Source: a virus (lineage: Duplodnaviria > Heunggongvirae > Uroviricota > Caudoviricetes). From it: 64,000 bases of DNA. Under the pieces are notes generated by a model. That model did no database searches. It was not told the DNA's origin and saw only the letters and a list, made by a program, of their open reading frames with translations. The DNA lies in the IMG/VR virus record IMGVR_UViG_2974574029_000001, positions 31,424-95,423 of that record. One strand, written 5' to 3'. Below, one piece after another: positions 7,782-55,209 of the stretch (positions within the stretch are counted from its first letter, which is position 1; the number at the start of each line of letters is the position of its first letter). The position numbers and the translations under genes are program-made.

Positions 7782-8232
7782 TGTTCTGCGCCTCCAGCCA
7801 ATCCCCAAGTTCATCTCTGGTCTGTTTGAAAGATTCAAGTTCAAGCAGTTTTTCATCTTTTTCCGTGAGCCTATCTGCTAGGTTGAAAAGTCTTGCCAAC
7901 GCATGGTTGAGCAGCGTTCTCTCAAACAGAGTAGCCCAAGAAATTCCTTTGAAGCTGATTGCGTGATCAGTCCCATACTCAGTTATATCGAAGATTTCCA
8001 CCTTCTCTATGCGGAAAGGAAGCTCTCCATTTTTCCACACAAGAAATTTCCTTTTCCCTTCATTTCTGGTCCTAAAGTTGTTCGCCTCTTTTTCCAAGAA
8101 CTTAAGGAATTCCCAAGCCGGGTAATCACATCTCGCCACAAGTCGAGCATACTCTGCCTTCGCGTCTATAGTATTCTTTGGAGAGCATCTTATCCACCAC
8201 AAGTTGAAATCTTCGTGACTTACAAGTTTCAT
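7774..8232 (-). CDS. hypothetical protein
   Basis: 152-aa ORF. Confidence 0.3.
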   Translation of the reverse strand: MKLVSHEDFNLWWIRCSPKNTIDAKAEYARLVARCDYPAWEFLKFLEKEANNFRTRNEGKRKFLVWKNGELPFRIEKVEIFDITEYGTDHAISFKGISWATLFERTLLNHALARLFNLADRLTEKDEKLLELESFKQTRDELGDWLEAQNNV

Positions 8233-9475
8233 GGTCTCTCCTTAAGAACATTACGGATTGCATCGATACGTGCAACACGGATCGCCTCACCGATCTCCTT
8301 ACCGCTTTTGCCTTTCTCTAGCATTGCGGAAGATACCGCCTTGCTGTCCGTATTTACAACCGCCTCGAAAGCATCAAGGAGAATTTTTCCTTGCGGGTAT
8401 TCCTTATCTGCGTGCGTGGCACCACGACCACGGGCATCGCAGAAACAAGCGTCTGCTAAGGAAAACACCTTGTCCTGTGTCTTCTGACTAGCCACGTTAC
8501 CTGCGGCTTCGAAAAGCTTCATCATGGAACGTGGCTTGATTCCTTTATTATTCCCACGGCCCAAAATGCAATGCACACGAGTATGGTGCTCTGTCACGTA
8601 CAGTGCAATATCCCTGAATTCGTTAGGAACTCGAATCCGACTGCACAGCGTCCGCACAGGATCAAGACCAGCCTCTTCATGACCGAGGAGATTACCGTAC
8701 TTACGGAAAGTGATCGCCTTTCCAAAGTCATGACACAGCACCGCAAATTTCACCTGAGGAGAGCAAAAGGTTTTATCGGCCTGTTGCAGACACATCAATG
8801 TATGAATGAAAGCGTCTCCTTCCGGGTGATGTTCTCTCGGCTGTTCTACTCCACGAAGGGCATCCAGTTCTGGAAGTTCGCCCATAATCGACATGTGGTA
8901 AGCATAGTTATGGAAGTTTTTGGAATTTAAAGCCTTTTCCATCTCTTTCCATTTACGCTCAGGACTAATCTCCGCAAGGCGGTGACGATTATTAAACATA
9001 AGTGTGTATGTTTTATGGTCAACAGACCAACTCTCCCCTAACTGTGCCTTAAGACGGAAAAGACGCAGAATACGCAGTGGGTCATCCATGAATGCTGACG
9101 TCGTATGACGAAGAGTCATGTTTGACAGGTCATGCATACCGTTGAACGGGTCAATGATAAACCCTGTCTCCATGTCTTTAGCCATCGCATTGATCGTAAG
9201 ATCACGACGAGACAAATCCTCTTCCAGCGTCACATCTGGCTGAAGAAAGTCTCAAAGCCAGTATGACCTTCACCAGTTTTGCGCTCAGTACGGGCCAGTG
9301 CGTATTCTTCTTTGGTTTCAGGATGCAAGTACACCGGGAAAGCAGCGCCAACCTGGGTGAAACCTTTTTCAATCATTTCTTCGTGCGTTGCACCCACAAC
9401 CACGTAGTCACGGTCATGAACTGGGCGACCCAGCAGACCATCACGAACAGCGCCACCTACCAGATATACTTTCAT
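8229..9475 (-). CDS. cca: tRNA nucleotidyltransferase (CCA-adding enzyme), reading frame interrupted near 9233-9250
   Basis: N-terminal fragment (9230..9475) [28 protein letters not shown]...[17 protein letters not shown]-terminal fragment (8229..9233) [17 protein letters not shown]...[11 protein letters not shown] plus an HD domain LCHDFGKA. Both match the bacterial Cca head and HD domain; the fragments meet at a 1-nt frame change. Confidence 0.7.
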
Positions 9476-9484
9476 CTTTTCTCC

Positions 9485-9751
9485 TTAGAAATTGTCTGTG
9501 TTGATGAAGTGTATACCGTTCTTCTTCAACAAGTCAACCTTTAATTTCCGTAAAAGAAGATCGTGGTCTTTTTTAATGGAAATAAGGGTATTCCTATGAC
9601 CATCTATCTCATGTGACGGCCTCACATGGAGGACCTTTTCGCGACTGTATGTGCCAGATGCCGTTTTCACATCAAAATTCTCTTGCAGATCACCCAAAAC
9701 AACAGTGTAATACGGATACAGATCATATTTCACAAATGCAGTTACTTTCAT
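9485..9751 (-). CDS. hypothetical protein
   Basis: 88-aa ORF. Confidence 0.3.
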   Translation of the reverse strand: MKVTAFVKYDLYPYYTVVLGDLQENFDVKTASGTYSREKVLHVRPSHEIDGHRNTLISIKKDHDLLLRKLKVDLLKKNGIHFINTDNF

Positions 9752-17559: not shown

Positions 17560-19871
17560 TTATAAAGAACAACTTTCGCAATAAGGGTCTTCAGTATCCC
17601 CGGCAATAAATGGTGCAACAGCTCTTGTCTCTTCCTCAGCTTTTGCTTTAGCATGAAGTTCCTCAGTGAGGGAATCTCCAGCACCGACTTTAGAGTTCAG
17701 ATAATACCATGTCTTCATCCCCATCTTCGTGGCGCGGATCAGATATCCCAGTTGTTGTTTCATGGAAATCTTACCATCAGGCAACTGGGTATAGTCGATG
17801 TAAAGATCCGCACTAATTGCTTGCCCTGCGAACTTCTGAATGATTGCATAGATATCAATCAAGTCGTTCGTATCGATATCCCAAGCCGATGTGTAATATT
17901 CCTTCAGCTCTTCATACTCAGGCACGATAAACAGCACAGAGCCTTGAGGGGATTTCTTGAAGATCACATGGTCACGTACCGGATACAGGCCATTTGTTGT
18001 GTTGGTAGCCAATGATGAACTTTCGTTCGGCATATAAGCTTCCAGAACACTGTTACGGATACCACCATTTTCGATGATTTCCTGGCGCAAAGTTTCCCAG
18101 TCCTGCTTCAGGCTCGGATTCTTCACGACACTATCAACTGCCTTATTATAGGTATCGATAGGCAACCAACCCTGCGGTACTTAGTCTTATTCATCCACGG
18201 AGCAACACCACGCTCTTTAGCCAGTCGTAGACTTGCCTTATGCAGACTGAAGCTATGCAGTTCTGCCAGATCGTGAACCAACTGCTTGCTCTCAGGAGAA
18301 CCATACGCGACTTTGTGTTTCGCTATGTAATGAGCAAGGTTGGTCAAACCAACACCAATAGAACGGCGAGACTCGGCTGTGTACTTCATATTCTCATACG
18401 GATAGTCCATGATATCCATAACGTTGTCGATCATCAGGACGGTGTAGTAAGCAACATCCTCGTATTCTTCTTCGGAAACACGACCAGCAACCAGAGAGGC
18501 GATAAAGCACAATGCAACTTCACCATCATCGACAGCCGGGTTGAAAATATTACGCATATCTGTATACCCTTTTGTTGGCAGACAGATTTCTTGACACAAG
18601 TTAGATGAGTAAATTGTTTCAAGGAATGGCGTATGACGGTTCATTTCGTCAGGCCAGTAAACATAAAGACGACCAGTTTCTGCACGTTGAGTAATCAGCT
18701 CCATTGCCAGATCACGAGCCTTCACCCAAGTCTTTGGAATCTTCGTATCTGCTGCTACACGGGCAACCTCAGCATCAAACTCCTGCATTGTCATTCGGAA
18801 CATACCCTCATGCAACTGAGGGGCATCCTTATATGACACCAACATCCAGTCCAGATTCTTAGCTACGCGATTCATGAACGAGTGGTTGACACCAATCGAA
18901 TAGTCCATCGTATTGATACGTTTTGAGGTAACCGTCATCGGGTTACGCAGGCGCATCAGTTCTTCAACCTGCGGGTCTAGCGCAAGGAAAGACACCGTTG
19001 CAGAACCACCACGGGATTGTTGGCGATTTTCCTTAACACCAACATCAATTCCACGGTAATACGGGAGTTTACCCATATGTTTGATCGTATTGTCACGAAC
19101 ACCATCGCCGATAGAGCGGGATGACAGGTAATAACCGATCCCTGCCTGTGCTACCGTCATAGTGTACGCCACTTCACGAGCAACACCTATACTTTTAGCT
19201 GTATCGTCTGCTTTGATAATGCAACAGGATGCATATCCAGTTTTACCAGTACGCAGACCATTCAGGTACGGCGTTGGTGCATTGATTTTAAGATCAGAGA
19301 GATACCTATACAGTCTGATGACGTCATTCTTCCTACGGGATAATGGCATATTCTTCATAACAGCCATAGCAATACCCATGAACATCATCTGTGGGGATTC
19401 GAACAGGATATCATTGATGTTATCTTTGATACCATACTTATCCCGGAACTGTTTCAGAACCGCATACCCATAACTCAGGTCCTTACTGTGGTCAATGACT
19501 TGATCAAAGTTTAACAGCTCAGGTCCCGTATAGCCCATTTCTTCCCAGTACCCACGCATCACCATGTCCTGGTAAAACTCGGTAAGGCTTGGGATTTTCT
19601 TAAATCCACCAAAAGCTTCCTTGTAGATTTGTCCAATCAGGACGCGCCCAGCCATACGTGAATGGGCTTCGTCTTTACGACTCACACAGGCGTCGATCAA
19701 TGCCTGGTTAACTTCACGAGTGGTGCAGCCGTCATACAGTCGCTTATATGCATCCATTGAGATATACGACCAGTTACCATTACCGTCATCACCAAAGATA
19801 GCGGCCTTGTTTAGACGTTCTGGTTCAAATGGAACCACACTGCCATCACTCTTCACAACTGTATTGATCAA
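17560..19871 (-). CDS. nrdA: ribonucleotide reductase class Ia alpha subunit, frame interrupted near 18160-18170
   Basis: ORF 18123..19871 carries an ATP-cone at the N-terminus and the catalytic domain. ORF 17560..18165 (MPIDTYNKAV...) matches the NrdA C-terminus (E. coli GILPIDTYKK...). The fragments join across a 1-nt frame change (KTKYRR / VPQGWLPIDTY). Confidence 0.8.
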
Positions 19872-23608: not shown

Positions 23609-24463
23609 TTAAGTATTAAAGTTGTGAACAAGGATCTCTGTAGCTTTTGCCCCGAAGGTGTCTTTCGAGGATGCTGTGTACTTCACGTTGAACTCCTCGA
23701 AGCTAAACCCTGCAAAGATTTCTCTAAACATCTTATCATCCTTGTTGCAGAAAGCAATCTTATTCTTCTTGCTGTGTGCGATCAGGAACTCGGCCATTTC
23801 AAATTGCATAAGGTCGCTGAAGTTCTCACGTTTGTCGTACTGTGTATGGCTGGAGATGTACGGAGGGTCAGCAAAGACCAGTGAGTTGTCAGGAATAACA
23901 ACCTGCTCGTAGCTCCCGCAGAGAATCTCTGCCTTATCTACCATTGCCTTGAAATCTTCCATGCCTTTACGGTTATAAATTCCGGTCTTCTCGCCACCAT
24001 TGCCGAATGGCGTGTAATACAGACCGGAGCTGGACTTAGCTTGCCAGATGCCGTTGAAGTTTGTACACAATAGGAAGTATAGCATCGCAGAGCGATCGAG
24101 GACATCTATTTCGTAATACTCCTCGTGGAATTCTTCACGAACCTTGAGGTACATCGCTTTCCGGTTCTCTTTACCTTCGAGAGCCATGTAGGTTCGCTCA
24201 TAATAATCTACAAGGTCGATGAAAGAGGCATAGTCATGCTTGATGCCTGTGTAGATTCCAAAGATGTCTACGTTAATTTCATTCAGGATAATTCTTGCAT
24301 CGGGGTAGTTCTGGTGAATCCACACAGAAGTAGCTCCTGTTCCCCCGCATAAATCCACAAAGGTGTCGAACTGCAATCCCTTGAAGAAAGGCTCATACTT
24401 TGGAAACATCTTTCGCTTGCTTCCGGTCCATTTGAAAAGCGGATAAATACTTGTAATCAACAA
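23609..24463 (-). CDS. Dam-family DNA adenine methyltransferase
   Basis: FKWTGSKRKM (KWAGGK-like motif) and FADPPYISS (DPPY). Confidence 0.7.
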   Translation of the reverse strand: MLITSIYPLFKWTGSKRKMFPKYEPFFKGLQFDTFVDLCGGTGATSVWIHQNYPDARIILNEINVDIFGIYTGIKHDYASFIDLVDYYERTYMALEGKENRKAMYLKVREEFHEEYYEIDVLDRSAMLYFLLCTNFNGIWQAKSSSGLYYTPFGNGGEKTGIYNRKGMEDFKAMVDKAEILCGSYEQVVIPDNSLVFADPPYISSHTQYDKRENFSDLMQFEMAEFLIAHSKKNKIAFCNKDDKMFREIFAGFSFEEFNVKYTASSKDTFGAKATEILVHNFNT

Positions 24464-24504
24464 GCCCCCTAAGAAAGAGAAGAGGGGCTTACGCCCCTAT
24501 TTTT

Positions 24505-24738
24505 TTAGAATGTCATTTCACTGTTGAACAGGTCTCTCATCTTATCTGCCCCCGCTTGGCTATTGGAGACAGGTTTGCGATTAATCGGGACAAAGAGATT
24601 GCCACCAATTACCCGCATACCGTAATGATAAAGAAGCCCAGCCACAATGAAGATACGGTCTGCCGATGCTTTCGGGTTAAGGAATGAATAAGATCCTTGT
24701 TGCATTAGCAAGTTGTTCAGGTACGTTGTCACACACAT
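24505..24738 (-). CDS. hypothetical protein
   Basis: 77-aa ORF. Confidence 0.25.
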   Translation of the reverse strand: MCVTTYLNNLLMQQGSYSFLNPKASADRIFIVAGLLYHYGMRVIGGNLFVPINRKPVSNSQAGADKMRDLFNSEMTF

Positions 24739-25529
24739 CTCCCTGCGGAGTTAAGAGGTTTTGAGAACTGACCTGTAAGGATCTCATCAAAAAACCAGTC
24801 GATTCGGATGTAACTACTCTTACCACCCTTGGCACGAAGGGCGCGGTACGCTGCAAGGAATGGTGCGCTCTTAGACATAAAAGTTTTCGTTGTGCGTGGT
24901 TCAAAAGCATCGTAAAAAGCATTGATGTGCTCAACACCGAACGCCATTACCTTCTTAGAACGGAGTTCAACCTCAGTTTTACACGATTTCTTATCAACAG
25001 ACTTCACCATGCGGTTAAGTAGGGTTGAAAGACGCATAATACGACCTTCATCCACACCGCTCAAGTGAGCAGCAGACTGCATCGCATGACTGGATTTTTT
25101 AATTTGCCCGTTGCTGTCGAAAGTTTCGTACCACATTTCGATATCCAGTGGTGTCTTCATATCTTTTACACATACAACCAATGGATTCTTTCTTAGGTCG
25201 TTCACCATAGGGTGTCCCGACTCTACGGCACGTTGCCAGTAGCATTTACGGGTGTTTCCATCAACAACCAGAGCATCGCCAGGTTTGATTACCTCACCAC
25301 CTTCGTACTCAAAAGATTCTCCAGTATAAATGCCCACCGAAACAACACGGTGCTGAGGAAGAACATTCTCGAAATGATCAACCTGACCCTTATTAACACG
25401 ATCATCGTGGTTTCGCTGCACAACAGGCGTTTTGGTCAGGGTTAAGAAGTTATCAACGCTACATAAAGCCATGAACCCATCTGACGTGGCTGTGCCGGTT
25501 ATTGGTGTCAGGGTATCTTGAAATTTCAT
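24729..25529 (-). CDS. hypothetical protein
   Basis: 266-aa ORF. Confidence 0.35.
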   Translation of the reverse strand: MKFQDTLTPITGTATSDGFMALCSVDNFLTLTKTPVVQRNHDDRVNKGQVDHFENVLPQHRVVSVGIYTGESFEYEGGEVIKPGDALVVDGNTRKCYWQRAVESGHPMVNDLRKNPLVVCVKDMKTPLDIEMWYETFDSNGQIKKSSHAMQSAAHLSGVDEGRIMRLSTLLNRMVKSVDKKSCKTEVELRSKKVMAFGVEHINAFYDAFEPRTTKTFMSKSAPFLAAYRALRAKGGKSSYIRIDWFFDEILTGQFSKPLNSAGRCV

Positions 25530-25566
25530 AATTTCTCCTTTATATTGCTAACCGAGGTTTTGAGGA

Positions 25567-26028
25567 TTAGATTTCTGTTTTAGCTTTGAATACGGATTCT
25601 TTAACTCCGTGGCCCTCGTAAATTTTACCACGGAAATGGATTTTAAGTTTTCCGTTGCTGTCTTTCTTCAGTTTACCATCTTTCTTGATTTCCACAAGGG
25701 TTTTGTACAGTGCCTTGGTGTGGAAGATCGGTTCACGATGCAGGAAAAGGTCGCCCTTACCATTGTGCCGCTTGAAAAGCAGCGGAAATGTTTTCGGGTT
25801 CAGAGATCGGATTATATCCACCACAGATTCGGCAGAATACCCCATGTCTCTGAAGCGACCATTGCCCATGATAGAACCAAGAGTATGATAACCCACAGTA
25901 GAGGATTTCACATCATGGTTACGGTCATAGACCGATGAGAGGTCTTTAAGCATAAGCAGAAGACTTGCATCAGTTGCCGGGATGTTCTCAGTTGCTGAAA
26001 TGCAAAAGCCTGCGTATTTTACTGTCAT
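25567..26028 (-). CDS. hypothetical protein
   Basis: 153-aa ORF. Confidence 0.3.
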   Translation of the reverse strand: MTVKYAGFCISATENIPATDASLLLMLKDLSSVYDRNHDVKSSTVGYHTLGSIMGNGRFRDMGYSAESVVDIIRSLNPKTFPLLFKRHNGKGDLFLHREPIFHTKALYKTLVEIKKDGKLKKDSNGKLKIHFRGKIYEGHGVKESVFKAKTEI

Positions 26029-26130
26029 ACAGTCTCTCCCTTGGTAGTTTGTATTGTCTCGTGCAGTTTGCTCTCTGGCACACGAGACATTCTACTGTTT
26101 AATAAAGTCTTGTCAACACGTTTTTATTGC

Positions 26131-27072
26131 TTAAGACAAGATATTTGCCAGAAGCTGTTGCCGTTTATCCTTGGAGAGGATATTAACACGCCCACGGCGC
26201 TGTTGCCCGGTGACCTTATGGCGGTAGCGTTGGTATTTGCCAAGATTGGTGTAATGGAAACCATCCTCTACCCACTCGCTCATATCCAGAACATCATCAA
26301 CGTAAAGGTCGAAGTTAGGAAGACGAGGGTCCCACGGCATGAAGATTTCATACAACTCTTGGTTCGATAAAACGTCGAACTTGTTATACTCTTCCATTTC
26401 ATCCCAAGCCTCGGGGTTACCTTTCAAGCACTCATCCCACAGTAGGTGTCCTGGGAACTTGGTGTGCTTAGACTTCTTGTATTTCGTACACAGGCGATCG
26501 GTCAGATATTCCAGCTTGTTGGAGGTGAATCCAAACAGGGCTTTGGCGATAAGCATGGTATCGATAATACGGAAGGTTGATGGCTTATCCATTCCATTCA
26601 ATAGGAAACGAGCATTGACCTTCTTAATGTCGAACTTACGGACATTATGCCCAACAACAAAATCCGCTTCATCAAGCAAGTCCCACAGGTCTTGAAGGAT
26701 AGATGCATCACTTTCCTTATCGTAGTTATCACGGATATCGCGATAAATGACCTCGTCCTGGTCAGCCCATTTGGCTACGAAAGATAGCATGTACCAGTCA
26801 GAAACCATCTGGTTAAGCCCAATTCCATTCTGCCATAGACTCCAGAGATGCCCCTTCAGCGGTGCAGTCTCGATATCTAAGAACAGGATCTTAGCTTTCT
26901 TATAGTCCGATACTAAGGCCTTTGTTAAAGGCGTAGACTCTGCGCTATGACGCTTAAGAACCAAACGGATGTATGACTCTCTCGACTCTTTTCCAAGGAA
27001 TGTGCGAGCAATTTCACGGTTACTCATTCCGCTTTCATGAAGTTCTATAATCTTTTTATCTACAGGTAGCAT
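26131..27072 (-). CDS. DEDD/RNase H-fold exonuclease-like protein with N-terminal HTH
   Basis: ILFLDIETAP (Exo I DxE-like motif); the N-terminus HESGMSNREIARTF resembles an HTH. Confidence 0.4.
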   Translation of the reverse strand: MLPVDKKIIELHESGMSNREIARTFLGKESRESYIRLVLKRHSAESTPLTKALVSDYKKAKILFLDIETAPLKGHLWSLWQNGIGLNQMVSDWYMLSFVAKWADQDEVIYRDIRDNYDKESDASILQDLWDLLDEADFVVGHNVRKFDIKKVNARFLLNGMDKPSTFRIIDTMLIAKALFGFTSNKLEYLTDRLCTKYKKSKHTKFPGHLLWDECLKGNPEAWDEMEEYNKFDVLSNQELYEIFMPWDPRLPNFDLYVDDVLDMSEWVEDGFHYTNLGKYQRYRHKVTGQQRRGRVNILSKDKRQQLLANILS

Positions 27073-34762: not shown

Positions 34763-35077
34763 TTACGATAATTTGAGTATCAGGCGCACAGGGATTTGGG
34801 AACCATCGCCGAGAGACAGGATAACATCCTCCCCCATCGCACCAGTATTAGTTACGGTATAAACCTTTCCGCAAAACATGATCTCATCACCCTTACGGAT
34901 TGCTTTAGCTGGATAGTTTCCAGGTTCCCGATCAGTGTCTTCCAGAGGGTCATATGTTGCATGGAAAATTTCTGATTTGCAAGGATAGAATTCTCCAGCC
35001 ACCCCTTTAATTACATAATCCCCAGCAGAGGCTACAACCACCCCCTCTAGGTTTTTATCTCTACAGTACGACCACAA
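34763..35077 (-). CDS. hypothetical protein
   Basis: 104-aa ORF. Confidence 0.3.
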   Translation of the reverse strand: MWSYCRDKNLEGVVVASAGDYVIKGVAGEFYPCKSEIFHATYDPLEDTDREPGNYPAKAIRKGDEIMFCGKVYTVTNTGAMGEDVILSLGDGSQIPVRLILKLS

Positions 35078-47465: not shown

Positions 47466-47538
47466 CGTTCAGTAGCTTAGTTGGTAGAGCATGTTCTTCA
47501 TACGGATAAGGTCAGTGGTTCAAGTCCACTCTGAACGA
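47466..47538 (+). tRNA. tRNA-Met (anticodon CAT)
   Basis: Acceptor CGTTCAG/CTGAACG, T-arm AGTGG-TTCAAGT-CCACT, anticodon loop TTCATAC; no encoded CCA. Confidence 0.75.
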
Positions 47539-47541
47539 TAA

Positions 47542-47619
47542 GGCCCTCAAGCTCATAAGGTATGAGCAATCGACTCATAATCGAGAGGTAGGTAGGTTCG
47601 AATCCTCCGGGGGTCACCA
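47542..47619 (+). tRNA. tRNA with CAT anticodon (Ile2/fMet-type), atypical
   Basis: Acceptor GGCCCTC/GGGGGTC (2 G-U pairs), D-arm GCTC/GAGC, loop CTCATAA, TTCGAAT T-loop, encoded CCA. One mismatch each in the anticodon and T stems. Confidence 0.45.
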
Positions 47620-47712
47620 ATTAAAAAATGTTGACGAGGATAATTGATTGAGTTAATATCCTCATGAACATAAACGGGAGAAATTCCCAAATAAAATGCA
47701 AAGGAGAAAATT

Positions 47713-48024
47713 ATGACTAAGAAAAATTCTACTAAGAAAGTATCTGCTATTGACGCTATCAAACAGCCTTTCCAGTTTGAGTCAAAGTCTACTCAGACGC
47801 ATTCTGCTCCGCATGATGTACGTCTGGGTGGTGTAGAGAAGACTGTTTCGGTATTTGATCGCCGTAAGGGTGAATACAAGTCAGAAACCCGCATTGAGGG
47901 TGGTCAGATTATCTCTGCATCTTACCGTGTTCGCACAGGTAAGACAAAACGTGAACGTGCTGGTAAAGTGAAGGAAGCTAAGGTTATTGAAACCGTAGCT
48001 CCAAATGGTAAGAAGAAAAAATAA
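47713..48024 (+). CDS. basic Lys-rich hypothetical protein inside the tRNA cluster
   Basis: 103 aa; AAGGAGAAAATT before the ATG. Confidence 0.4.
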   Translation: MTKKNSTKKVSAIDAIKQPFQFESKSTQTHSAPHDVRLGGVEKTVSVFDRRKGEYKSETRIEGGQIISASYRVRTGKTKRERAGKVKEAKVIETVAPNGKKKK

Positions 48025-48088
48025 TTCCTCCGGCATGGGGAACAATGACGATTCCGTGAAACGTCTTTAAAAACACGGATCTTATTTC

Positions 48089-48163
48089 GGGGTATTAACT
48101 CAGTGGTAGAGTAGCCGACTCTTAATCGGTTTGTCGAAGGTTCGAATCCTTCATGCCCCACCA
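48089..48163 (+). tRNA. tRNA-Lys (anticodon CTT)
   Basis: Clean cloverleaf: GGGGTAT/ATGCCCC, loop CTCTTAA, GAAGG-TTCGAAT-CCTTC, encoded CCA. Confidence 0.75.
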
Positions 48164-48165
48164 AA

Positions 48166-48270
48166 TTTGAAATGAGAGAGATACGGGTTCGACTCCCGTT
48201 CTTGCTGGCCCGGCTCGCGTAGTGGCACAGGGCGATAGCTTAAATGGACGAAAGTGCTCTCGTTTCAAAT
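48166..48270 (+). ncRNA. structured RNA element (13-14 bp closing stem around a T-arm-like hairpin)
   Basis: TTTGAAATGAGAG (48166-78) pairs with CTCTCGTTTCAAA (48257-69). Inside lie ACGGG-TTCGACT-CCCGT and a GGCCCGGC hairpin. Confidence 0.3.
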
Positions 48271-48291
48271 CGGAACCAAAAGGAGAACAAA

Positions 48292-48480
48292 ATGTTAGGG
48301 TCATTATTACGTATGGCTGGCGATATTGTTGGTACTGCTGTTGTTGTCACTGCAACTGTTGCAGAACCTTTTGTAGATGTAGCCGCAGAAGTTCTTGACG
48401 CCGCTGATGAGATGATTGTATCTCCTACCGCAGACGTCGTTGGTGAAGTTTGCGACTCCATTAAGGACGTTGTACGATGA
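48292..48480 (+). CDS. small hydrophobic/acidic protein
   Basis: Start at MLGSLLRMAGDIVG after AAAAGGAGAA. Confidence 0.35.
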   Translation: MLGSLLRMAGDIVGTAVVVTATVAEPFVDVAAEVLDAADEMIVSPTADVVGEVCDSIKDVVR

Positions 48481-48614
48481 GTGGCGGTGTTATCTTTATC
48501 ATCATGTCAGTGATCTCTTTCCTGCTTGTTCTTTGGTATTATTGGTCATGGTTTGAAAACAACCCTACCATCGAAGAAATAGTCAAAGATTCGCTTGACA
48601 AACACAATCTGTAA
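48477..48614 (+). CDS. small single-pass membrane protein (45 aa), hand-called
   Basis: ATGA overlap with upstream ORF; MSGGVIFIIMSVISFLLVLWYYWSWFENNPTIEEIVKDSLDKHNL. Confidence 0.3.
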   Translation: MSGGVIFIIMSVISFLLVLWYYWSWFENNPTIEEIVKDSLDKHNL

Positions 48615-48655
48615 GTGTAGTATTTAAAACCTAATTTAACGCAAAGGAGAACTTA

Positions 48656-49267
48656 ATGACTGATTCTAAAACTGTAATTTCCGTAACTGAACGTGCCACT
48701 AAAGCAGTAACCACTGCCGCTACTGGTCTGACTAAGGTAGTCGCTGAACTGCAATCTCTGGCAGAAGGGTCTGAACAGATCAGCCAGGAAATTCAGTTTA
48801 AGCAGCAGGAACTGGGACAAATTGAAGTTCAGTTCAACGAAAAACTGGCTGAAGAAAAATCCAAGCTGAAGATCAAAGTTCTGGAAAACGAAGATTCCGT
48901 TCTTAACTCTATCCTGAAAGCTCGCGGCCTTGTAGCTGTAGAACCGGGTGTTGTTGACGAACTTCGTGCAGAGCTGGCTACCTCTCAGCAGAACAATGCT
49001 GAAGCTGTAGAAAGCGCAGTTGCCGACGTTAAACGTAGTGCTGCAATTGAACTGAATGCGGTTAAGGCAAATCTGGAGTCTGCTCACAAGGTTGCAATTG
49101 CAGAACTTACTGCGAACAGCAAGGCTAAGGATGACCGTATTGCAATGCTGACTGAGCAGCTTGAAGCAGCGCGTGGCGATCTGAAGGCTGAACGCGAAAC
49201 CCGTCTGGAAATCGCAAAAGCGGACGCTAACCGCCAAGGCGTAGTTGTCAATACTGGCAAAAACTAA
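48656..49267 (+). CDS. coiled-coil protein (paralog A)
   Basis: 203 aa, Ala/Glu/Lys-rich heptads; GCAAAGGAGAA RBS context shared with the next gene. Confidence 0.45.
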   Translation: MTDSKTVISVTERATKAVTTAATGLTKVVAELQSLAEGSEQISQEIQFKQQELGQIEVQFNEKLAEEKSKLKIKVLENEDSVLNSILKARGLVAVEPGVVDELRAELATSQQNNAEAVESAVADVKRSAAIELNAVKANLESAHKVAIAELTANSKAKDDRIAMLTEQLEAARGDLKAERETRLEIAKADANRQGVVVNTGKN

Positions 49268-49275
49268 TACGTAGT

Positions 49276-49301
49276 GCCGACATGGATGTCGGCTAATTTT
49301 T
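49276..49301 (+). terminator. rho-independent terminator
   Basis: GCCGACA-TGGA-TGTCGGC followed by TAATTTTT. Confidence 0.55.
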
Positions 49302-49344
49302 GAAGTTCATTAAAATTTAAAATTTATTGCAAAGGAGAATATTT

Positions 49345-49992
49345 ATGACTACCAAGATTTCTGTGACTCGTGCTCTGGCAACTCTTTCTAAGATCGAAGA
49401 CAAGATCACGAAACGCATTAACACCCTGGAAACCATCCACGTTGCTCGCGGTGAAGGTGACCGTAAGGCAATCCCAGGTTCTCTGGCTTCTGTATCTGCT
49501 TTCGAAAGCGCAGCGGTTTCTGACTTCCAAGGTCTTGTTGACTTGATGAAAGTTCGTGATGAACTGAAAGCTGCGGTAGTACAGTCCAACGCAGTTACCA
49601 AGGTAACTGTCGGTGGTGTTGAGATGACTGTCGCTCAGGCTATCGAGCGCAAGCGTACAATCGTCTTTAATGAGCAACTGCTTGCTAAACTGATTGCTCA
49701 GTACAATCATGGCAAGATTCTCCTTAAGAAAGAGAATAGCGATTTTGAGATGAAGCTGGAACAGGCTCGCGCACCTTACATCAGTCGTGATAAGGCACCT
49801 GATCCAGAGCAGATCAAGACCGTTGAAGCTCCGGTCCGTCTGATGGGTACTCCGAGCATCGTTGATCCGCTTAATTTGGCAGTTCGCATTCGTTCTCTGG
49901 AAGCAGAGATTGAAGACTTTAAGTCTAACGTTGACTTTGTTCTTTCCGAGTCAAATGCACGGACTGAAGTAGAGATTGAAGGATCAATCTAA
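49345..49992 (+). CDS. coiled-coil protein (paralog B)
   Basis: Start at MTTKISV after GCAAAGGAGAATATTT; similar N-terminus and composition to 48656..49267. Confidence 0.45.
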   Translation: MTTKISVTRALATLSKIEDKITKRINTLETIHVARGEGDRKAIPGSLASVSAFESAAVSDFQGLVDLMKVRDELKAAVVQSNAVTKVTVGGVEMTVAQAIERKRTIVFNEQLLAKLIAQYNHGKILLKKENSDFEMKLEQARAPYISRDKAPDPEQIKTVEAPVRLMGTPSIVDPLNLAVRIRSLEAEIEDFKSNVDFVLSESNARTEVEIEGSI

Positions 49993-50382
49993 AATATCTT
50001 CAGGAATTCTTGATTAACCTCTTGTAATTCCTGCGGATAGCTGGTAAAGTTTTTAAATGCTGTTTTTGGTTAGCGAAGTCAGAAACATCTTGCCTCTACC
50101 GGGGCCGGAGGTTAAACTGCTCCGAACATAATCATATAGGATGATACTTAAACGTATGTTTCCGCAGACCATACATCTGCCGAAATTGTCGAATCGCGAA
50201 TTCGAAAGACTTCAAAATTCAACACTCAAAGATTATCGTTCAAAGCTTAATGTTTAAACTTGAAACTTCTAAACCGTAAAGTTAAAATTTCTTTGATTAC
50301 TTAAATCCTGGATATAGGATCTTAGCTCACAAGATATGGCTAACTGACTCCTCCAGGCTGTTAATCGGAAACAGTATGCTTC

Positions 50383-50457
50383 GCTCTCATCGTATAATGG
50401 CTATTACAGCGGCTTTGTAACCCGTTAATCTCTGTTCGATTCAGTGTGGGAGCACCA
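50383..50457 (+). tRNA. tRNA-like, possible tRNA-Thr (anticodon TGT), degenerate
   Basis: Acceptor GCTCTCA/TGGGAGC (one G-U), loop TTTGTAA, TTCGATT T-loop, CCA. One mismatch each in the D, anticodon and T stems. Abuts the HNH start codon. Confidence 0.3.
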
Positions 50458-50850
50458 ATGTTTATTTGTCTTTGTTGCAAAAAAGAATGTAAAATAAAGA
50501 AAAACACCTTATCTAAATATTGTTCTAATAAGTGCCAGAGAGATTACGAATACAAGGCTAGGGTCGAGTCTTGGCTGAGAGGGGAATATCTTGGATACAC
50601 GGGGAAGACAGCTCAAATAGCAAACTTCGTGAGAAGATACCTCTTAGAGACAAGAGGAGAGAAATGTGAGTCTTGTGGTTGGAGTAAACGACATCCGGTA
50701 GACGGGGCTATTCTTCTTGAGATTGACCATATTGATGGGGATGCTAGGAACTGTGAGCCTTCTAATCTTAAGATACTTTGTCCTAACTGCCACGCTATGA
50801 CACCTACATTTAGGGCAAGAAACAAGATATCCAGTAGGATAAGAAAATAA
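50458..50850 (+). CDS. HNH endonuclease
   Basis: CESCGWSKRHPVDGAILLEIDHIDGDARNCEPSNLKILCPNCHAM. ATG directly follows the CCA of the tRNA-like element. Confidence 0.55.
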   Translation: MFICLCCKKECKIKKNTLSKYCSNKCQRDYEYKARVESWLRGEYLGYTGKTAQIANFVRRYLLETRGEKCESCGWSKRHPVDGAILLEIDHIDGDARNCEPSNLKILCPNCHAMTPTFRARNKISSRIRK

Positions 50851-51146
50851 CCAATGCCGGGTAAGCGGTTTGTCAACTGCGGGGTCCCTCCAGACCTGAA
50901 AAATACGCCAAAAATAATAGTACGGCTAAATACATAGGTGGTTAGATTCCACCACCCGGCTCCAAATCTATTTTGCGAGGTTCTGAAACACTTAAAATCT
51001 CCTGCATCTAATGGGATGTGATCTCTGTGTCAGCTCTTATATCAAGTTGATGAAAGGGATGGCGTAGGCTCTGCTTCGCAAGCAGGGGCGCTTCGGGGAG
51101 ACAACGGCGGTTGTCATGACATCGGAACTTCACAAAATAGATTTCT

Positions 51147-51235
51147 GCGGGATTGGTGGTATTGGCAGTACACACGAGGCTTAAGACTTCGTAGGCCTCT
51201 TGGCCTTGAGGGTTCGAATCCCTCATCCCGCACCA
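51147..51235 (+). tRNA. tRNA-Leu (anticodon TAA)
   Basis: GCGGGAT/ATCCCGC, loop CTTAAGA, long variable arm AGGCC-TCTT-GGCCT, GAGGG-TTCGAAT-CCCTC, CCA. Confidence 0.75.
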
Positions 51236-51312
51236 GAATTATGGGGTACTTAACCGATAACACTCCCGGCTTCCAACGCGTGGGGGAGTGCGGAGAGTCC
51301 CCGCCAAATACA

Positions 51313-51388
<76 letters not shown>

Positions 51389-51393
51389 AAAAA

Positions 51394-51467
51394 GCGCGGT
51401 TGCTGGAGTGGTAACAGCTTTCTCTGCAAAAGAAATGTCAGGTGTTCGATTCGCCTACCGTGCTCCA
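51394..51467 (+). tRNA. tRNA-Cys (anticodon GCA)
   Basis: GCGCGGT/ACCGTGC, D-stem GCTG/CAGC, anticodon stem TTTCT/AGAAA, loop CTGCAAA, AGGTG-TTCGATT-CGCCT, CCA. Confidence 0.65.
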
Positions 51468-51552
51468 AGTTGTTGAATATTTTTATAAAAAATGATAAAA
51501 TAGCCCTTGACAGATAAATTTAAATCTGATAACATTAATAAGTGGGGTTATT

Positions 51553-51903
51553 ATGGCAGTAAAACAACAACTTACAAAGCGTCGTAGAGGAAAAGGTAGA
51601 CCTCTTAAAGAAGAGTCTAATGCTATTCAGCTTGAGAAGAATATCCTTGACCTTAAGACCAATATGATTGCTATGATTCCTGATGCTCATAAAGTGCTAA
51701 AAGACCTTATGACAAGTGCCACAACAAAGGACAATATCAGGGAAAATATTGCTCGATTTGTAATTGAGAAAGGTGAACAAATGCTTTCTGATTACTTCGA
51801 TGAAGAGAATGAAGAAGCTGAAACAACTAATGTTGATGATAAGAAATCTACTCCTATGAGTAAGCCATTCACAACAGATATTGTTCAGTTCAAACAAGGT
51901 TAA
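51553..51903 (+). CDS. hypothetical protein inside the tRNA cluster
   Basis: 116 aa with a basic N-terminus and acidic C-terminus. Confidence 0.35.
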   Translation: MAVKQQLTKRRRGKGRPLKEESNAIQLEKNILDLKTNMIAMIPDAHKVLKDLMTSATTKDNIRENIARFVIEKGEQMLSDYFDEENEEAETTNVDDKKSTPMSKPFTTDIVQFKQG

Positions 51904-51905
51904 AT

Positions 51906-51992
51906 GCGTCGTTAGACCGTAGGGGTAGCGGGACAGACTGTAAATCTGTTGCTCAAAAGGCTCGGGTAGTTCGACTCTATCACGGCGCACCA
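51906..51992 (+). tRNA. tRNA-Tyr (anticodon GTA)
   Basis: GCGTCGT/ACGGCGC, anticodon stem ACAGA/TCTGT, loop CTGTAAA, long variable arm, GGTAG-TTCGACT-CTATC, CCA; 87 nt. Confidence 0.7.
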
Positions 51993-51998
51993 ATTAAT

Positions 51999-52073
51999 GG
52001 GAGTATAGTTCAGCGGTAGAACGCTCGACCGATAATCGAGAGGTCTCTGGTTCGATCCCAGATACTCCCACCA
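51999..52073 (+). tRNA. tRNA-Ile (anticodon GAT)
   Basis: GGGAGTA/TACTCCC, GTTC-AGCGGTA-GAAC, loop CCGATAA, TCTGG-TTCGATC-CCAGA, CCA. Confidence 0.8.
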
Positions 52074-52082
52074 ATATAACTA

Positions 52083-52157
52083 GAGGCCGTAGTATAGCGG
52101 GAATTATGACTGGCTTCCACCCAGTAGATGAGAGTTCAATTCTCTCCGGTCTCTCCA
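52083..52157 (+). tRNA. tRNA-Gly (anticodon TCC)
   Basis: GAGGCCG/CGGTCTC, ACTGG-CTTCCAC-CCAGT, GAGAG-TTCAATT-CTCTC, CCA. Confidence 0.75.
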
Positions 52158-52172
52158 ACTTCAAGAGGCTCC

Positions 52173-52691
52173 ATGAAAGAGTTGTGGAAAGATGTTGAAG
52201 GATATGAGGAATTCTTCATGATAAGCAATCTTGGAAACCTCTATAGTAAAAGAAGTTTTAGGTGTCTTAAACTGAGTACGTTGCCCTCTGGATATGTGCA
52301 ACACACTACGAGGATTGGTGGTAGAGGCGGCAGATATGTTGCATTTCGTATACACCGTCTTGTGGCAAAAGCTTTTATCAGTAATCCTGAAGGGAAGCCA
52401 GAGGTTAATCATAAAAATGGCAACAAAAGTGATAATAGGGTAAGTAATCTTGAATGGGTAACCCCATCTGAAAATGTTCGTCATGCTTTCGATACAGGTT
52501 TATCAAAAGCCAGAAGTGGTATTTACAATAGTAGAAGTAAACTTTCCATCTCTCAAGTTGAAGAGATAAGAGAAAGAAGACTACAAGGTGAAACATGCAG
52601 GTCTCTTGCTGAAGAGTTTTGTGTTCACCATATGCAGATTTCGAGAATCTGTAGGGGAGTCTCTTACAAAACAAATGCTCCTATCGGCTAA
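52173..52691 (+). CDS. HNH homing endonuclease (NUMOD4 + HNH_3)
   Basis: MKELWKDVEGYEEFFMISNLGNLYS and VNHKNGNKSDNRVSNLEWVTPSEN. Start at the internal ATG 16 nt after the tRNA-Gly CCA. Confidence 0.6.
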   Translation: MKELWKDVEGYEEFFMISNLGNLYSKRSFRCLKLSTLPSGYVQHTTRIGGRGGRYVAFRIHRLVAKAFISNPEGKPEVNHKNGNKSDNRVSNLEWVTPSENVRHAFDTGLSKARSGIYNSRSKLSISQVEEIRERRLQGETCRSLAEEFCVHHMQISRICRGVSYKTNAPIG

Positions 52692-52752
52692 ATGGACAGG
52701 CCGTCATACTTTCAATCTGGAAATCCGAGTTCGATCCTCGGTGGGAGTGCCA
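52677..52752 (+). tRNA. tRNA-like remnant (acceptor stem + T-arm + CCA, no convincing D/anticodon arms)
   Basis: GCTCCTA (inside the HNH 3-prime end) pairs with TGGGAGT. CCGAG-TTCGATC-CTCGG T-arm and CCA present. 76 nt, but the internal region does not fold as a cloverleaf. Confidence 0.25.
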
Positions 52753-52758
52753 AATAAT

Positions 52759-52862
52759 GGGTATCTAAGGCGAATTGGAAAACGCCCGGTGAAGTGGGTG
52801 CGCACCTTGTAGCTCACTGGCATACTTGCTGAGGTTCGTTCGAATCGGACTGATGCCCACCA
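52759..52862 (+). tRNA. over-long (104 nt) tRNA-like gene
   Basis: Perfect 7-bp acceptor pairing GGGTATC/GATGCCC, D-arm-like GGCG-N10-CGCC, T-arm GTTCG-TTCGAAT-CGGAC, discriminator A and CCA. Roughly 30 nt of extra internal sequence; no anticodon assignable. Confidence 0.25.
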
Positions 52863-52874
52863 AACAATGTGCGG

Positions 52875-52949
52875 GTAACTTAATTGCTCCGGGAGCAAGC
52901 TGGTCTCCAAAGCCAGTCGTAAGGGGTTCGACTCCTCACCTTCATGCCA
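52875..52949 (+). tRNA. tRNA-like with Trp-type anticodon arm (CCA anticodon) but unpaired acceptor
   Basis: D-arm TTGC-TCCGGGA-GCAA, anticodon arm CTGGT-CTCCAAA-GCCAG, T-arm AGGGG-TTCGACT-CCTCA and terminal GCCA all lie at canonical spacing. The 5-prime and 3-prime ends do not base-pair. Confidence 0.25.
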
Positions 52950-53104
52950 GATAATGGGGGCGACCGGATGTTGAAAATGACTATGATCTACCGCTGCAAC
53001 GGGAAATCTTGTCGGTCATAAGTAAGCATGGCGGCAACAAAATAAGCTGAGGATTGCAGTCCGATACTTAGCCTGGCTCGGTTTCAGGCGCCCTCACCGA
53101 TTGT

Positions 53105-53180
53105 AGGGAGATGGTGTAATTGGTTAGCACACGGGTCTTTGAAATCCGTAGTTCAGGTTCAAGTCCTGATCTCCCTGCCA
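53105..53180 (+). tRNA. tRNA-Gln (anticodon TTG)
   Basis: AGGGAGA/TCTCCCT, GTGT-AATTGGTTA-GCAC, CGGGT-CTTTGAA-ATCCG, TCAGG-TTCAAGT-CCTGA, CCA. Confidence 0.75.
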
Positions 53181-53372
53181 AGTTTTAGTGTTTTCTTTTG
53201 AGAATACTCATGCGTGGCCTAAGCATTTATCAGATGATGTTCAACCTGTGACGTTGAGGAAGTGGGAGCGATACCCACAGGTCACCCCAAATTGCAGATA
53301 CGTGAACATCTCTAACTTCCCCTTAATTGGTTCTAGTCGAGATTTTCGTTTATACGTTATCTGCCGCGATTT

Positions 53373-53464
53373 GGTGGAATGGTCGAGAGGTTTAAGACAG
53401 CATCTTGGAAAGATGTCGGCCCCTTAACAGGGGTCCGTAGGTTCGAATCCTACTTCCACCGCCA
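53373..53464 (+). tRNA. tRNA-Ser (anticodon GGA)
   Basis: GGTGGAA/TTCCACC, GCATC-TTGGAAA-GATGT, long variable arm GGCCCC-TTAACA-GGGGTC, GTAGG-TTCGAAT-CCTAC, CCA; 92 nt. Confidence 0.7.
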
Positions 53465-53479
53465 CTTTATGGAGGGTTC

Positions 53480-53638
53480 ATGCAGAAGCTATTGCGTTGT
53501 AAGAAAGTGTTTGGTCGTTGCAAACTCCACGGAAGTAACTGTGGTGTTGCTGAAGAGATTCAATCTATTCCGATCACTCGCGCAAAAGAGAAAATGGATC
53601 TTCGTAAAGAGATTAAAGAACAATTGGAAGATTGGTGA
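53480..53638 (+). CDS. small Cys-containing protein (52 aa), hand-called
   Basis: GGAGGG RBS; MQKLLRCKKVFGRCKLHGSNCGVAEE... The stop overlaps the start of the next tRNA. Confidence 0.3.
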   Translation: MQKLLRCKKVFGRCKLHGSNCGVAEEIQSIPITRAKEKMDLRKEIKEQLEDW

Positions 53639-53711
53639 AATGGTAGCCACAGCGGTTTGCTAAACCGCCATCCGAAAGGGTGTGCAAGTTCAACCCTTGC
53701 ATCTTCCGCCA
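53626..53711 (+). tRNA. tRNA-Ser (anticodon GCT)
   Basis: GGAAGAT/ATCTTCC, GCGGT-TTGCTAA-ACCGC, long variable arm, GCAAG-TTCAACC-CTTGC, CCA. Confidence 0.7.
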
Positions 53712-53735
53712 AAACAACAAGGAGGAACAAATCGA

Positions 53736-54182
53736 ATGGCGACGAAAACTGTTTTGAAAACAGCCGAGCATGATGAGTGCCTTGGGAGTTCAACTCTCCC
53801 TTCCTCCGCCAAATATTGCAATGGGTGCGCAACAACGTATCCAATAAGCGAGTTCTACACGATAGGTAAGTACAAAGACAAAATGAAATATAAACCTTTG
53901 TGCAAACGTTGTGAGAATAAACGCAGAAAAGAAAGGAATCTTGAGATAATCAAGGAAGTGTTTGGAGAAAATCTCTGCTGCTCATCTTGTGGATATGACA
54001 AGTGCTTTGCTGCTCTTGACTTCCATCATGTAGATGCAGAATCGAAAGACTTCAATATCGCTAAGATGCTACTTGGGACGCCAGCAAAAGAGAAGCTGGC
54101 AGCAGAATTGAAGAAGTGTATGATTCTTTGTGCGAATTGTCACAGGGAGCACCACGCAGAAGAAAGATTATCGGATAGGTAG
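53736..54182 (+). CDS. HNH endonuclease
   Basis: Start at MATKTVLK after AAGGAGGAAC; Cys-rich CNGC...CKRC...CSSCGYDKC and ILCANCHREHH. Confidence 0.55.
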   Translation: MATKTVLKTAEHDECLGSSTLPSSAKYCNGCATTYPISEFYTIGKYKDKMKYKPLCKRCENKRRKERNLEIIKEVFGENLCCSSCGYDKCFAALDFHHVDAESKDFNIAKMLLGTPAKEKLAAELKKCMILCANCHREHHAEERLSDR

Positions 54183-54248
54183 CCGAGCGGTCAGGCATTC
54201 GCCTTTTAAGCGAAGAGACGATGGGTTCAAATCCCTCCCTTCCCACCA
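54173..54248 (+). tRNA. tRNA-like, degenerate (Ser/Leu-type D-loop; TTT in anticodon position)
   Basis: GCCGAGCGGTCAGGC D-loop typical of type II tRNAs. TTCGC-CTTTTAA-GCGAA anticodon arm, GGG-TTCAAAT-CCC, CCA. The acceptor (5/7 pairs) and T-stem (3/5) pair poorly. Confidence 0.3.
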
Positions 54249-54372
54249 AATTAAATTAGTTAAAATAATTCTTGCAAAAAGTTGTTTTGACTGATAAAGT
54301 AAATACTCGATAGGGGTAAAGAGACGGCACTCTCCCTGTGACGCTGAAAGATGCAGGCCGACGAACACAAAT

Positions 54373-54457
54373 GACGAGCTGGTTCATTGGTAGAACGGCG
54401 GACTGTTAATCCGCGAGCATTAGCTCTATGTAGGTTCAATTCCTACGCTCGTCGCCA
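54373..54457 (+). tRNA. tRNA-Asn (anticodon GTT) with an unusual extended variable arm
   Basis: Perfect acceptor GACGAGC/GCTCGTC, GTTC-ATTGGTA-GAAC, GCGGA-CTGTTAA-TCCGC, 15-nt variable arm containing GAGC-ATTA-GCTC, GTAGG-TTCAATT-CCTAC, CCA. Confidence 0.6.
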
Positions 54458-54464
54458 ACTTTAT

Positions 54465-54541
54465 GGGGCCGTGACTGACAAGGTAATGGTGCCGCACTGT
54501 CGATGCGGAAAATGAGGGTTCGATCCCCTTCGGTCCCGCCA
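54465..54541 (+). tRNA. tRNA-Asp (anticodon GTC)
   Basis: GGGGCCG/CGGTCCC, CCGCA-CTGTCGA-TGCGG, GAGGG-TTCGATC-CCCTT, CCA. Confidence 0.7.
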
Positions 54542-54682
54542 ATTTGATATGTTGATGTAAATTGCAGGAATGCACTCAAAATGAGTTCGGCATATCAAAC
54601 CAATTGTACCCGAAATGGGCTTGATATTAGCTAGCCAGCGATACCAGTTGCAGTATCTGGGATAATTAAAATTCTGCACCTT

Positions 54683-54760
54683 CGGAGCGTAGCGCAGTCT
54701 GGTCAGCGTGGGTGCCTTGGATGCACTGGGTCGCAGGTTCGAATCCTGCCGCTCCGACCA
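54683..54760 (+). tRNA. tRNA-Pro (anticodon TGG)
   Basis: CGGAGCG/CGCTCCG, GGTGC-CTTGGAT-GCACT, GCAGG-TTCGAAT-CCTGC, CCA. Confidence 0.75.
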
Positions 54761-54766
54761 CTTTTA

Positions 54767-54842
54767 GCAGGTATAGTTCAACTGGACAGAGCATCAGTTT
54801 ACGAAGCTGAGAATCGGGGTTCGAATCCCTGTACTTGCACCA
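54767..54842 (+). tRNA. tRNA-Arg (anticodon ACG)
   Basis: GCAGGTA/TACTTGC, TCAGT-TTACGAA-GCTGA, CGGGG-TTCGAAT-CCCTG, CCA. Confidence 0.7.
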
Positions 54843-54846
54843 ACAT

Positions 54847-54922
54847 GGGGCTGTAGTTTATTTGGATAAAATCACAGGCTTGCACCTTGTAGAACTGAGT
54901 TCGATTCTCAGTGGCTCCACCA
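54847..54922 (+). tRNA. tRNA-Ala (anticodon TGC)
   Basis: GGGGCTG/TGGCTCC (G-U rich), ACAGG-CTTGCAC-CTTGT, CTGAG-TTCGATT-CTCAG, CCA. Confidence 0.65.
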
Positions 54923-55025
54923 AAAGAAGGCTGAGATTTCTTCGTGACCTCAGCGTTAAATAGTCCTCAAGCATCATTTCGGTGGTGAGCTTCTCGGGTA
55001 GCGCCCGGTTAATGAGGCAATATAC

Positions 55026-55112
55026 GGGCAAGTGGCGGAATTGGTAGACGCACTGGATTTAGGTTCCAGCGCCCATCGTGGTGTGAGAGTTCGAGTCTCT
55101 CCTTGCCCACCA
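55026..55112 (+). tRNA. tRNA-Leu (anticodon TAG)
   Basis: GGGCAAG/CTTGCCC, GCG-GAATTGGTAGA-CGC, CTGGA-TTTAGGT-TCCAG, long variable arm, GAGAG-TTCGAGT-CTCTC, CCA. Confidence 0.75.
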
Positions 55113-55209
55113 TAAAGAATAGTCAGACTCTGGTTGAATGTGAGTAGGGTTGAGTAGGCGTACTCAATGTGGATTCCGATACTGGAGTCACGCGAGTTTC
55201 TGACTATCT

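Follow-up and report, generated by a model that had tools for sequence, protein, structure and literature searches.

The split cca gene in the deposited genome of Raoultella phage Ro1 is probably the product of an uncorrected single-base undercall

In the public record of Raoultella phage Ro1, the gene for a predicted CCA-adding enzyme appears as two open reading frames (ORFs) in different frames. This raises the question of whether the phage carries a broken gene, a gene that is read by recoding, or an intact gene that was deposited with an error. The window analyzed here, a stretch of 64,000 nucleotides, corresponds to bases 31424-95423 of MG250486.1 on the same strand (RefSeq copy NC_048682.1), and megablast of window positions 8100-9600 returned a 100% match to MG250486.1 and NC_048682.1. 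Ro1 has a genome of 145.8 kb, is assigned to Mydovirus in the subfamily Vequintavirinae, and is the exemplar of the species Mydovirus Ro1. Literature searches for Ro1 and for MG250486 found no account of how Ro1 was sequenced, and one on Ion Torrent homopolymer frameshifts in phage genomes yielded nothing of direct use. The locus and its two ORFs, in positions of the window, are as follows.

8229..9475, minus strand: whole cca locus, predicted class II CCA-adding enzyme / tRNA nucleotidyltransferase with a C-terminal HD domain.
9230..9475, minus strand: N-terminal fragment ORF of 81 aa (GenBank Ro1_00084), which starts MKVYLVGG.
8229..9233, minus strand: C-terminal fragment ORF of 334 aa (GenBank Ro1_00083).

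Together, the 81-aa and 334-aa ORFs span a CCA-adding enzyme from end to end, and the split is already public, with Ro1_00084 and Ro1_00083 entered in GenBank as two separate "tRNA nucleotidyltransferase" CDS. Ro1_00084 carries motif A (GGAVRD...DRD), and Ro1_00083 holds the remainder of the head domain with the RRD motif, the DDPLRILR motif, the RNA-binding region, and the HD domain. The break separates motif A from the RRD motif, cutting through the catalytic head domain instead of falling at a domain border. The ORFs are in different frames and share 4 nt, the TGA stop of the first lying at 9230-9232 and the GTG of the second at 9231-9233. The first-pass annotation had matched both pieces to bacterial Cca, had placed them in different frames with a 4-nt overlap, and had read LQPDVTLEE in the alternate frame at the point where the first ORF stops. 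Profile searches, ORF coordinates, and translation, respectively, confirmed these three observations, the LQPDVTLEE sequence being found just upstream of the first stop. The counterpart of this sequence in E. coli Cca is AAPDVTLED.

The profile matches were divided between the two ORFs. In Pfam, PolyA_pol positions 1-37 were matched by the 81-aa ORF, and positions 86-126 by the 334-aa ORF along with PolyA_pol_RNAbd and HD; in the intact BIS47 orthologue, PolyA_pol positions 1-126 were covered (75.8 bits). The HD match was marginal, yet above the cut-off of 22, both in the Ro1 334-aa fragment (23.8 bits) and in the BIS47 orthologue (23.3 bits). NCBIfam NF008137 (multifunctional CCA addition/repair protein) was divided in the same manner, with positions 1-79 in the 81-aa ORF and positions 82-406 in the 334-aa ORF. 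Addition of one C generated a 415-aa ORF that scored 426.8 bits against NF008137 (positions 1-406 of 409). This score is below the equivalog cut-off of 451, which makes the restored protein a family homologue that takes no equivalog-level name and indicates that it belongs to a diverged phage lineage. Motif A aligned with GGAVRDLLLGRPIGDVD of the Bacillus CCA-adding enzyme (1MIV), and the RRD and [E/D]DxxR motifs aligned with the matching segments of 1MIV; the roles assigned to RRD and to the nucleotide-selecting [E/D]DxxR follow published CCA-enzyme structures. The BIS47 orthologue also matched PHROG 2244, tRNA nucleotidyltransferase (8e-151). Genes for tRNA nucleotidyltransferases are regularly present in Vequintavirinae genomes (PMC8879037), as they were among the megablast matches obtained here. 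By homology only, Ro1 cca is predicted to encode a phage class II CCA-adding and repair enzyme with an HD phosphohydrolase domain, and there is nothing unusual about the gene except for the missing base.

The cca locus was compared across six Mydovirus phages (BIS47, KP12, KPP-1, KB57, Mydo, and AV124). Megablast with window positions 8100-9600 returned 57 matching phage records, 35 of which covered at least 80% of the query. The 1.5-kb cca region of Ro1 shared 98.1% nucleotide identity with that of BIS47, and the gene is found at the equivalent place in the two syntenic genomes. The lesion was assigned to one site.

9238..9239: one-base deletion in a 3-base homopolymer of cca, GG on the plus strand where the six relatives have GGG.

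In the mRNA sense, Ro1 has CC where the relatives have CCC, within the codons AGC CCR that encode Ser80-Pro81, and the aligned sequence is TTCAG-CCAGATG in Ro1 versus TTCAGCCCRGATG in BIS47, KP12, KPP-1, KB57, Mydo, and AV124. The missing C was the single length difference in the cca alignment of Ro1 with the six relatives (1247 nt in Ro1 versus 1248 nt in BIS47, KP12, KPP-1, and KB57), and in all six relatives cca was a single ORF, 415 or 418 aa long. The first-pass annotation had attributed the frame change to a single-nucleotide indel and had pointed to related phage cca genes for comparison; both the missing C and the six uninterrupted genes agree with that proposal. Loss of one C from the Ser80-Pro81 CCC gives the Ro1 record two CDS where BIS47 has one. 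Among the matches listed (40 of 57), only the two Ro1 records had two tRNA-nucleotidyltransferase CDS under the match. The deletion accounts for the final two residues of Ro1_00084 (QM) and its TGA stop, which are read out of frame, and the GTG "start" of Ro1_00083 is Val83 of the intact protein. A pattern scan of IMG/VR for the deleted allele, TTCTTCAGCCRGATGTRAC, revealed no independent occurrence, and the scan with the intact pattern identified three contigs. The single TTCTTCAGCCRGATGTRAC match (L013) was rejected as a chance match in an unrelated major-capsid-like ORF.

We consider it probable that the cca break is an uncorrected homopolymer undercall, made during base calling or assembly, in the deposited record; the technical cause is one that we infer. 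Under such an error, the real phage would possess one intact 415-aa cca gene, and one C of the CCC in AGC CCA (Ser-Pro) would have been undercalled, shifting the frame. The first 79 codons would then run into QM and a stop, the other 334 codons would appear as a separate ORF, and the same type of error would be repeated across the record. The intact enzyme, with a function assigned by homology only, would serve a phage with 21 tRNA genes.

A different reading treats the split as functional, in that a programmed -1 frameshift would join the two frames, or termination-reinitiation at AUGUGA would yield two polypeptides that reassemble. The ATGTGA overlap of the stop and the GTG has the geometry of translationally coupled genes, and the sequence would in principle permit a single tRNA-Phe at ACU UUC to move from UUC onto UUU. 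Any ribosomal -1 shift must fall within a short stretch that surrounds the lesion.

9229..9253, minus strand: 25-nt stretch where any ribosomal -1 shift must fall, TGAGACTTTCTTCAGCCAGATGTGA.

This stretch, however, lacked both an X XXY YYZ heptamer and any run of at least four identical bases. When the 123 nt at 9140-9262, which span the site and the sequence downstream of it, were folded, the minimum free energy was -35.6 kcal/mol versus a shuffle mean of -30.7, a difference that was not significant (z = -1.29; 27 of 200 shuffles folded equally well). No Shine-Dalgarno-like sequence was identified upstream of the Ro1_00083 GTG, which is GTA in KP12, KB57, Mydo, and AV124, and the position of the break inside the catalytic head domain, rather than at a domain boundary, likewise argues against a functional arrangement. 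Since cca was continuous in six of six aligned relatives and no other listed match had two CDS, the split arrangement is not conserved. Recoding was rejected on the basis that there was no heptamer, no significant fold, and no conservation of the break among relatives, and a functional arrangement is very improbable. We attach similarly little credence to the possibility that the CC allele is real and the enzyme nevertheless active, whether by reassembly of a 9-kDa motif-A fragment with a 38-kDa fragment or by a low rate of non-canonical -1 slippage at ACU UUC.

The location of the cca lesion in a homopolymer would also fit a phase-variable on/off switch that operates through a hypermutable tract, and phase-variable poly-G tracts have been described in Campylobacter phage genes (PMC8540345). 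No length variation at the CCC site, however, was observed among the six aligned relatives. Known contingency tracts are much longer than 3 bases, and phase variation of cca was rejected because the run affected comprises only 3; we regard such a switch as scarcely credible. Considered jointly, the recoding, split-enzyme, and phase-variation readings are highly improbable.

The restored cca frame was examined for signs of decay on either side of the break. Residues 1-81 of the restored protein showed 0 non-synonymous codon differences relative to BIS47 or KPP-1 and were identical to those of BIS47, and residues 82-415 differed from BIS47 at 9 codons, 8 of them synonymous and 1 non-synonymous. 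The substitutions in cca that were private to Ro1 relative to the six relatives numbered 3, all synonymous. In a three-way alignment with BIS47 and KB57, the Ro1-private cca codons were 5 synonymous and 0 non-synonymous, and all were downstream of the break. The restored gene contained no further stops or indels. As the private changes were synonymous and no further damage was present, purifying selection has acted on the frame past the break along virtually the entire Ro1 branch.

These results are relevant to the main rival to a homopolymer undercall, namely a genuine and very recent frameshift, in which the Ro1 stock would truly carry CC and cca would be a fresh pseudogene, lost without cost. 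The deposited sequence does contain the deletion, and the CCA end is already encoded in 20 of the window's 21 tRNA genes, such that the enzyme would act only in repair. Enterobacterial hosts possess a Cca of their own, and large lytic phages can often do without their accessory metabolic genes under laboratory conditions. Since the cca gene is probably dispensable, Ro1 would tolerate its genuine loss.

The first-pass annotation had also reported that the pattern recurs in nrdA and in a RuvC-like gene, and had taken this recurrence as a pointer to systematic indel error or widespread gene decay. One-base deletions were indeed present at 18176 and 28046, together with others across the window. 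The whole window was compared with its counterparts of 60-64 kb in BIS47 and KB57. By tblastn of the ORFs of these relatives against the window, frame switches were detected in cca, nrdA, and the homologues of BIS47_111, BIS47_91, and BIS47_56, and nucleotide alignments added two broken genes, the RuvC-like resolvase and the BIS47_80 homologue. The cca and nrdA deletions were missed by a strict three-way screen and were established by direct inspection of the alignments. In total, nine one-base deletions were private to Ro1, including that in cca; eight of the nine were in CDS, and seven genes were broken (cca and six others). The eight deletions outside cca are as follows.

18176..18177: GG versus GGG in BIS47; nrdA, split into Ro1_00102 and Ro1_00101.
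24741..24743: CCC versus CCCC in BIS47; a 341-aa hypothetical gene, split into Ro1_00113 and Ro1_00112.
28046: C versus CC in BIS47 and KB57; RuvC-like resolvase gene, shortened.
34783..34784: GG versus GGG; first deletion in the BIS47_91 homologue, split into Ro1_00133 and Ro1_00134.
35049..35051: AGG versus GGGG; second deletion in the BIS47_91 homologue (Ro1_00133/134).
41342: G versus GG; Ro1_00145, a chimeric ORF relative to BIS47_80.
53368: A versus AA; the ninth deletion, outside CDS, 4 nt upstream of a tRNA-Ser gene.
55683: one base fewer; homologue of BIS47_56 (485 aa), split into Ro1_00186 and Ro1_00187.

Five of these eight deletions were in G/C runs, one was in AA, one came with a substitution next to it (GGGG to AGG), and the last, at 55683, was in no clean homopolymer, the neighbouring bases differing as well. 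The genes hit by the seven deletions in CDS were each intact in BIS47, and in KB57 where the gene was present. Polarity for genes other than cca was set mainly by these two relatives, and at 24741 by BIS47 only, because KB57 lacks the gene. The GenBank annotation shows the resulting CDS pairs or truncations; for instance, the RuvC-like Ro1_00118 is 492 nt in length versus 615 nt for BIS47_106. Among the matches listed for nrdA (30 of 56), two nrdA CDS under the match were found only in Ro1.

The direction and placement of the deletions were also informative. Relatives' ORFs were broken in Ro1 at 8-9 junctions per comparison by tblastn, and in the reverse direction Ro1 ORFs were broken in a relative 2 times per comparison, in every case in ORFs of 104-129 aa. 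The coding density is 86.5%, and the proportion of private deletions in CDS (8/9) matched it, which suggests that the deletions were unfiltered by selection. Among private insertions of 1-4 nt, by comparison, one of five touched a CDS, at a stop codon (Fisher p = 0.023).

Private codons downstream of the other breaks, read in the restored frame, were then compared with those of intact genes. Synonymous to non-synonymous counts were 11:1 in nrdA, 2:0 in the BIS47_111 homologue, 9:3 in the RuvC-like gene, and 4:1 in the BIS47_91 homologue, ratios close to the 333:59 observed in twelve intact control genes. An old pseudogene, or decay of long standing, was ruled out by the private changes past the breaks, which were synonymous in cca and mostly synonymous in the other genes.

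These results weigh against a genuine recent frameshift in cca. Nine one-base deletions, eight in CDS, would have had to arise independently within 64 kb, all of them recently, given that in-frame stops are absent and that downstream changes are dominated by synonymous ones. Seven genes, intact in every relative examined, would have been hit almost simultaneously. The nrdA gene would have been inactivated while its partner nrdB, which adjoins it and is intact, was under strong constraint (private codons 35 synonymous and 1 non-synonymous). The deleted cca allele was, in addition, absent from other viral contigs in the IMG/VR scan. A recent loss of cca is therefore unlikely, even as the most serious alternative to an undercall.

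Deletions that run in one direction, lie mostly in short homopolymers, are indifferent to coding, and split seven conserved genes that are otherwise undamaged form a pattern characteristic of systematic errors in base calling or consensus. Systematic indel error is favored because eight further private deletions accompany that in cca and because the nine, eight of which lie in CDS, show the distribution expected of events that selection never acted on. Counting against error are the shortness of the affected runs, at 2-4 bases, and the deletion at 55683, which has no clean run around it. Errors on flow-based platforms are most frequent in longer runs, and real mutations likewise favour homopolymers. 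The first-pass annotation had left sequencing error, a pseudogene, and a recoding site side by side as explanations. Of these, systematic indel error is the one now preferred, recoding failed on its testable features, and a pseudogene in the sense of long-standing decay is excluded. The split of cca is most probably not a biological feature.

For users of MG250486.1 and NC_048682.1, these findings constitute a data-quality flag, as one-base deletions appear to number at least nine in this 64 kb of the record, with eight in CDS. The genes fragmented in the record are cca, nrdA, the RuvC-like resolvase, and four hypothetical genes, and surveys of pangenomes, pseudogenes, or recoding that draw on the Ro1 record would yield false split genes. 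Should the cca deletion be real, it would show only that a phage in which almost every tRNA gene encodes CCA can lose its CCA-repair enzyme, which would be unsurprising.

The Ro1 cca locus can be compared with several known systems. It resembles genes that use programmed -1 frameshifting, such as dnaX, those of IS elements, and phage tail-chaperone genes, in that overlapping 0 and -1 frames encode one protein; unlike those genes, it lacks a slippery heptamer, a stimulatory structure, and a conserved break. The likeness to frameshifts caused by homopolymer error in flow-based and early nanopore data is broader, as the lesions are single-base, recurrent, and all deletions, and split conserved genes. 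Ro1 differs from typical records of that kind in the shortness of the runs (2-4 bases) and in the one lesion outside a clean run. With bacterial Cca (NF008137 / PRK10885, as in E. coli), the Ro1 gene has in common the class II nucleotidyltransferase with an HD domain and the PolyA_pol and PolyA_pol_RNAbd domains, whereas its ORF is interrupted in the deposited record, its product belongs to a lower-scoring phage lineage, and its activity is a predicted one. The closest counterparts are the Mydovirus tRNA nucleotidyltransferases of BIS47 (ARB12644.1), KB57 (ALM02539.1), KPP-1 (QKE60584.1), and KP12 (UNI73618.1), which are the same gene as Ro1 cca.

Apart from the deletion in cca, which encodes the CCA-adding enzyme, comparison of the window with the related phages BIS47 and KB57 identified eight one-base deletions private to the Ro1 record, most of them in short G/C runs. 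Seven of the eight disrupt genes, six in number without cca, and all six are unbroken in BIS47, as they are in KB57 wherever KB57 carries the gene.

18176, 24741, 28046, 34783, 35049, 41342 and 55683: gene-breaking deletions, affecting nrdA, Ro1_00112/113, the RuvC-like gene Ro1_00118, Ro1_00133/134, Ro1_00145 and Ro1_00186/187
53368: eighth private deletion, 4 nt upstream of tRNA-Ser(gga)

The KB57 record was found to contain private one-base deletions of its own, likewise in short runs (KB57 loci L010/L011), at the following window equivalents.

636, 1093, 47542 and 18170-18177: KB57 deletion sites, the last in nrdA

KB57 lacks a net 3 nt at the nrdA site, precisely where Ro1 lacks 1 nt. Further records of the genus that includes Ro1 and KB57 may therefore be affected by homopolymer-length problems.

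Larger presence/absence differences within this group of phages were also observed.

~7256: ~230 nt missing from Ro1 and present in BIS47 and KB57, matching a small ORF annotated at that place in both
23612-26131: ~2.5 kb shared by Ro1 and BIS47, including a DpnIIA-type methylase gene, and missing from KB57
40114: 175-nt insertion private to Ro1

The 3' CCA is gene-encoded in 20 of the 21 genes of the Ro1 tRNA cluster.

47466-55285: tRNA gene cluster, 21 genes
47466-47538: tRNA-Met(cat) call, the one gene lacking an encoded CCA

This call is preceded by an 8-nt insertion specific to Ro1, and the KB57 annotation places the corresponding tRNA on the other strand. The call may represent a pseudo-tRNA or a wrongly called tRNA.

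Located immediately upstream of cca in Proteus phage Mydo is an inserted HNH endonuclease gene (Mydo locus L006, 627-1139). Mydo and AV124 (cca at AV124 locus L007, 452-1708) share a cca 5' end that is 3 codons longer and much more diverged: across codons 1-81 they show 33-34 synonymous and 10 non-synonymous differences, compared with 8-9 synonymous differences in KB57 and KP12. The upstream HNH gene in Mydo, together with this longer, diverged 5' end, suggests mosaicism associated with a homing endonuclease.
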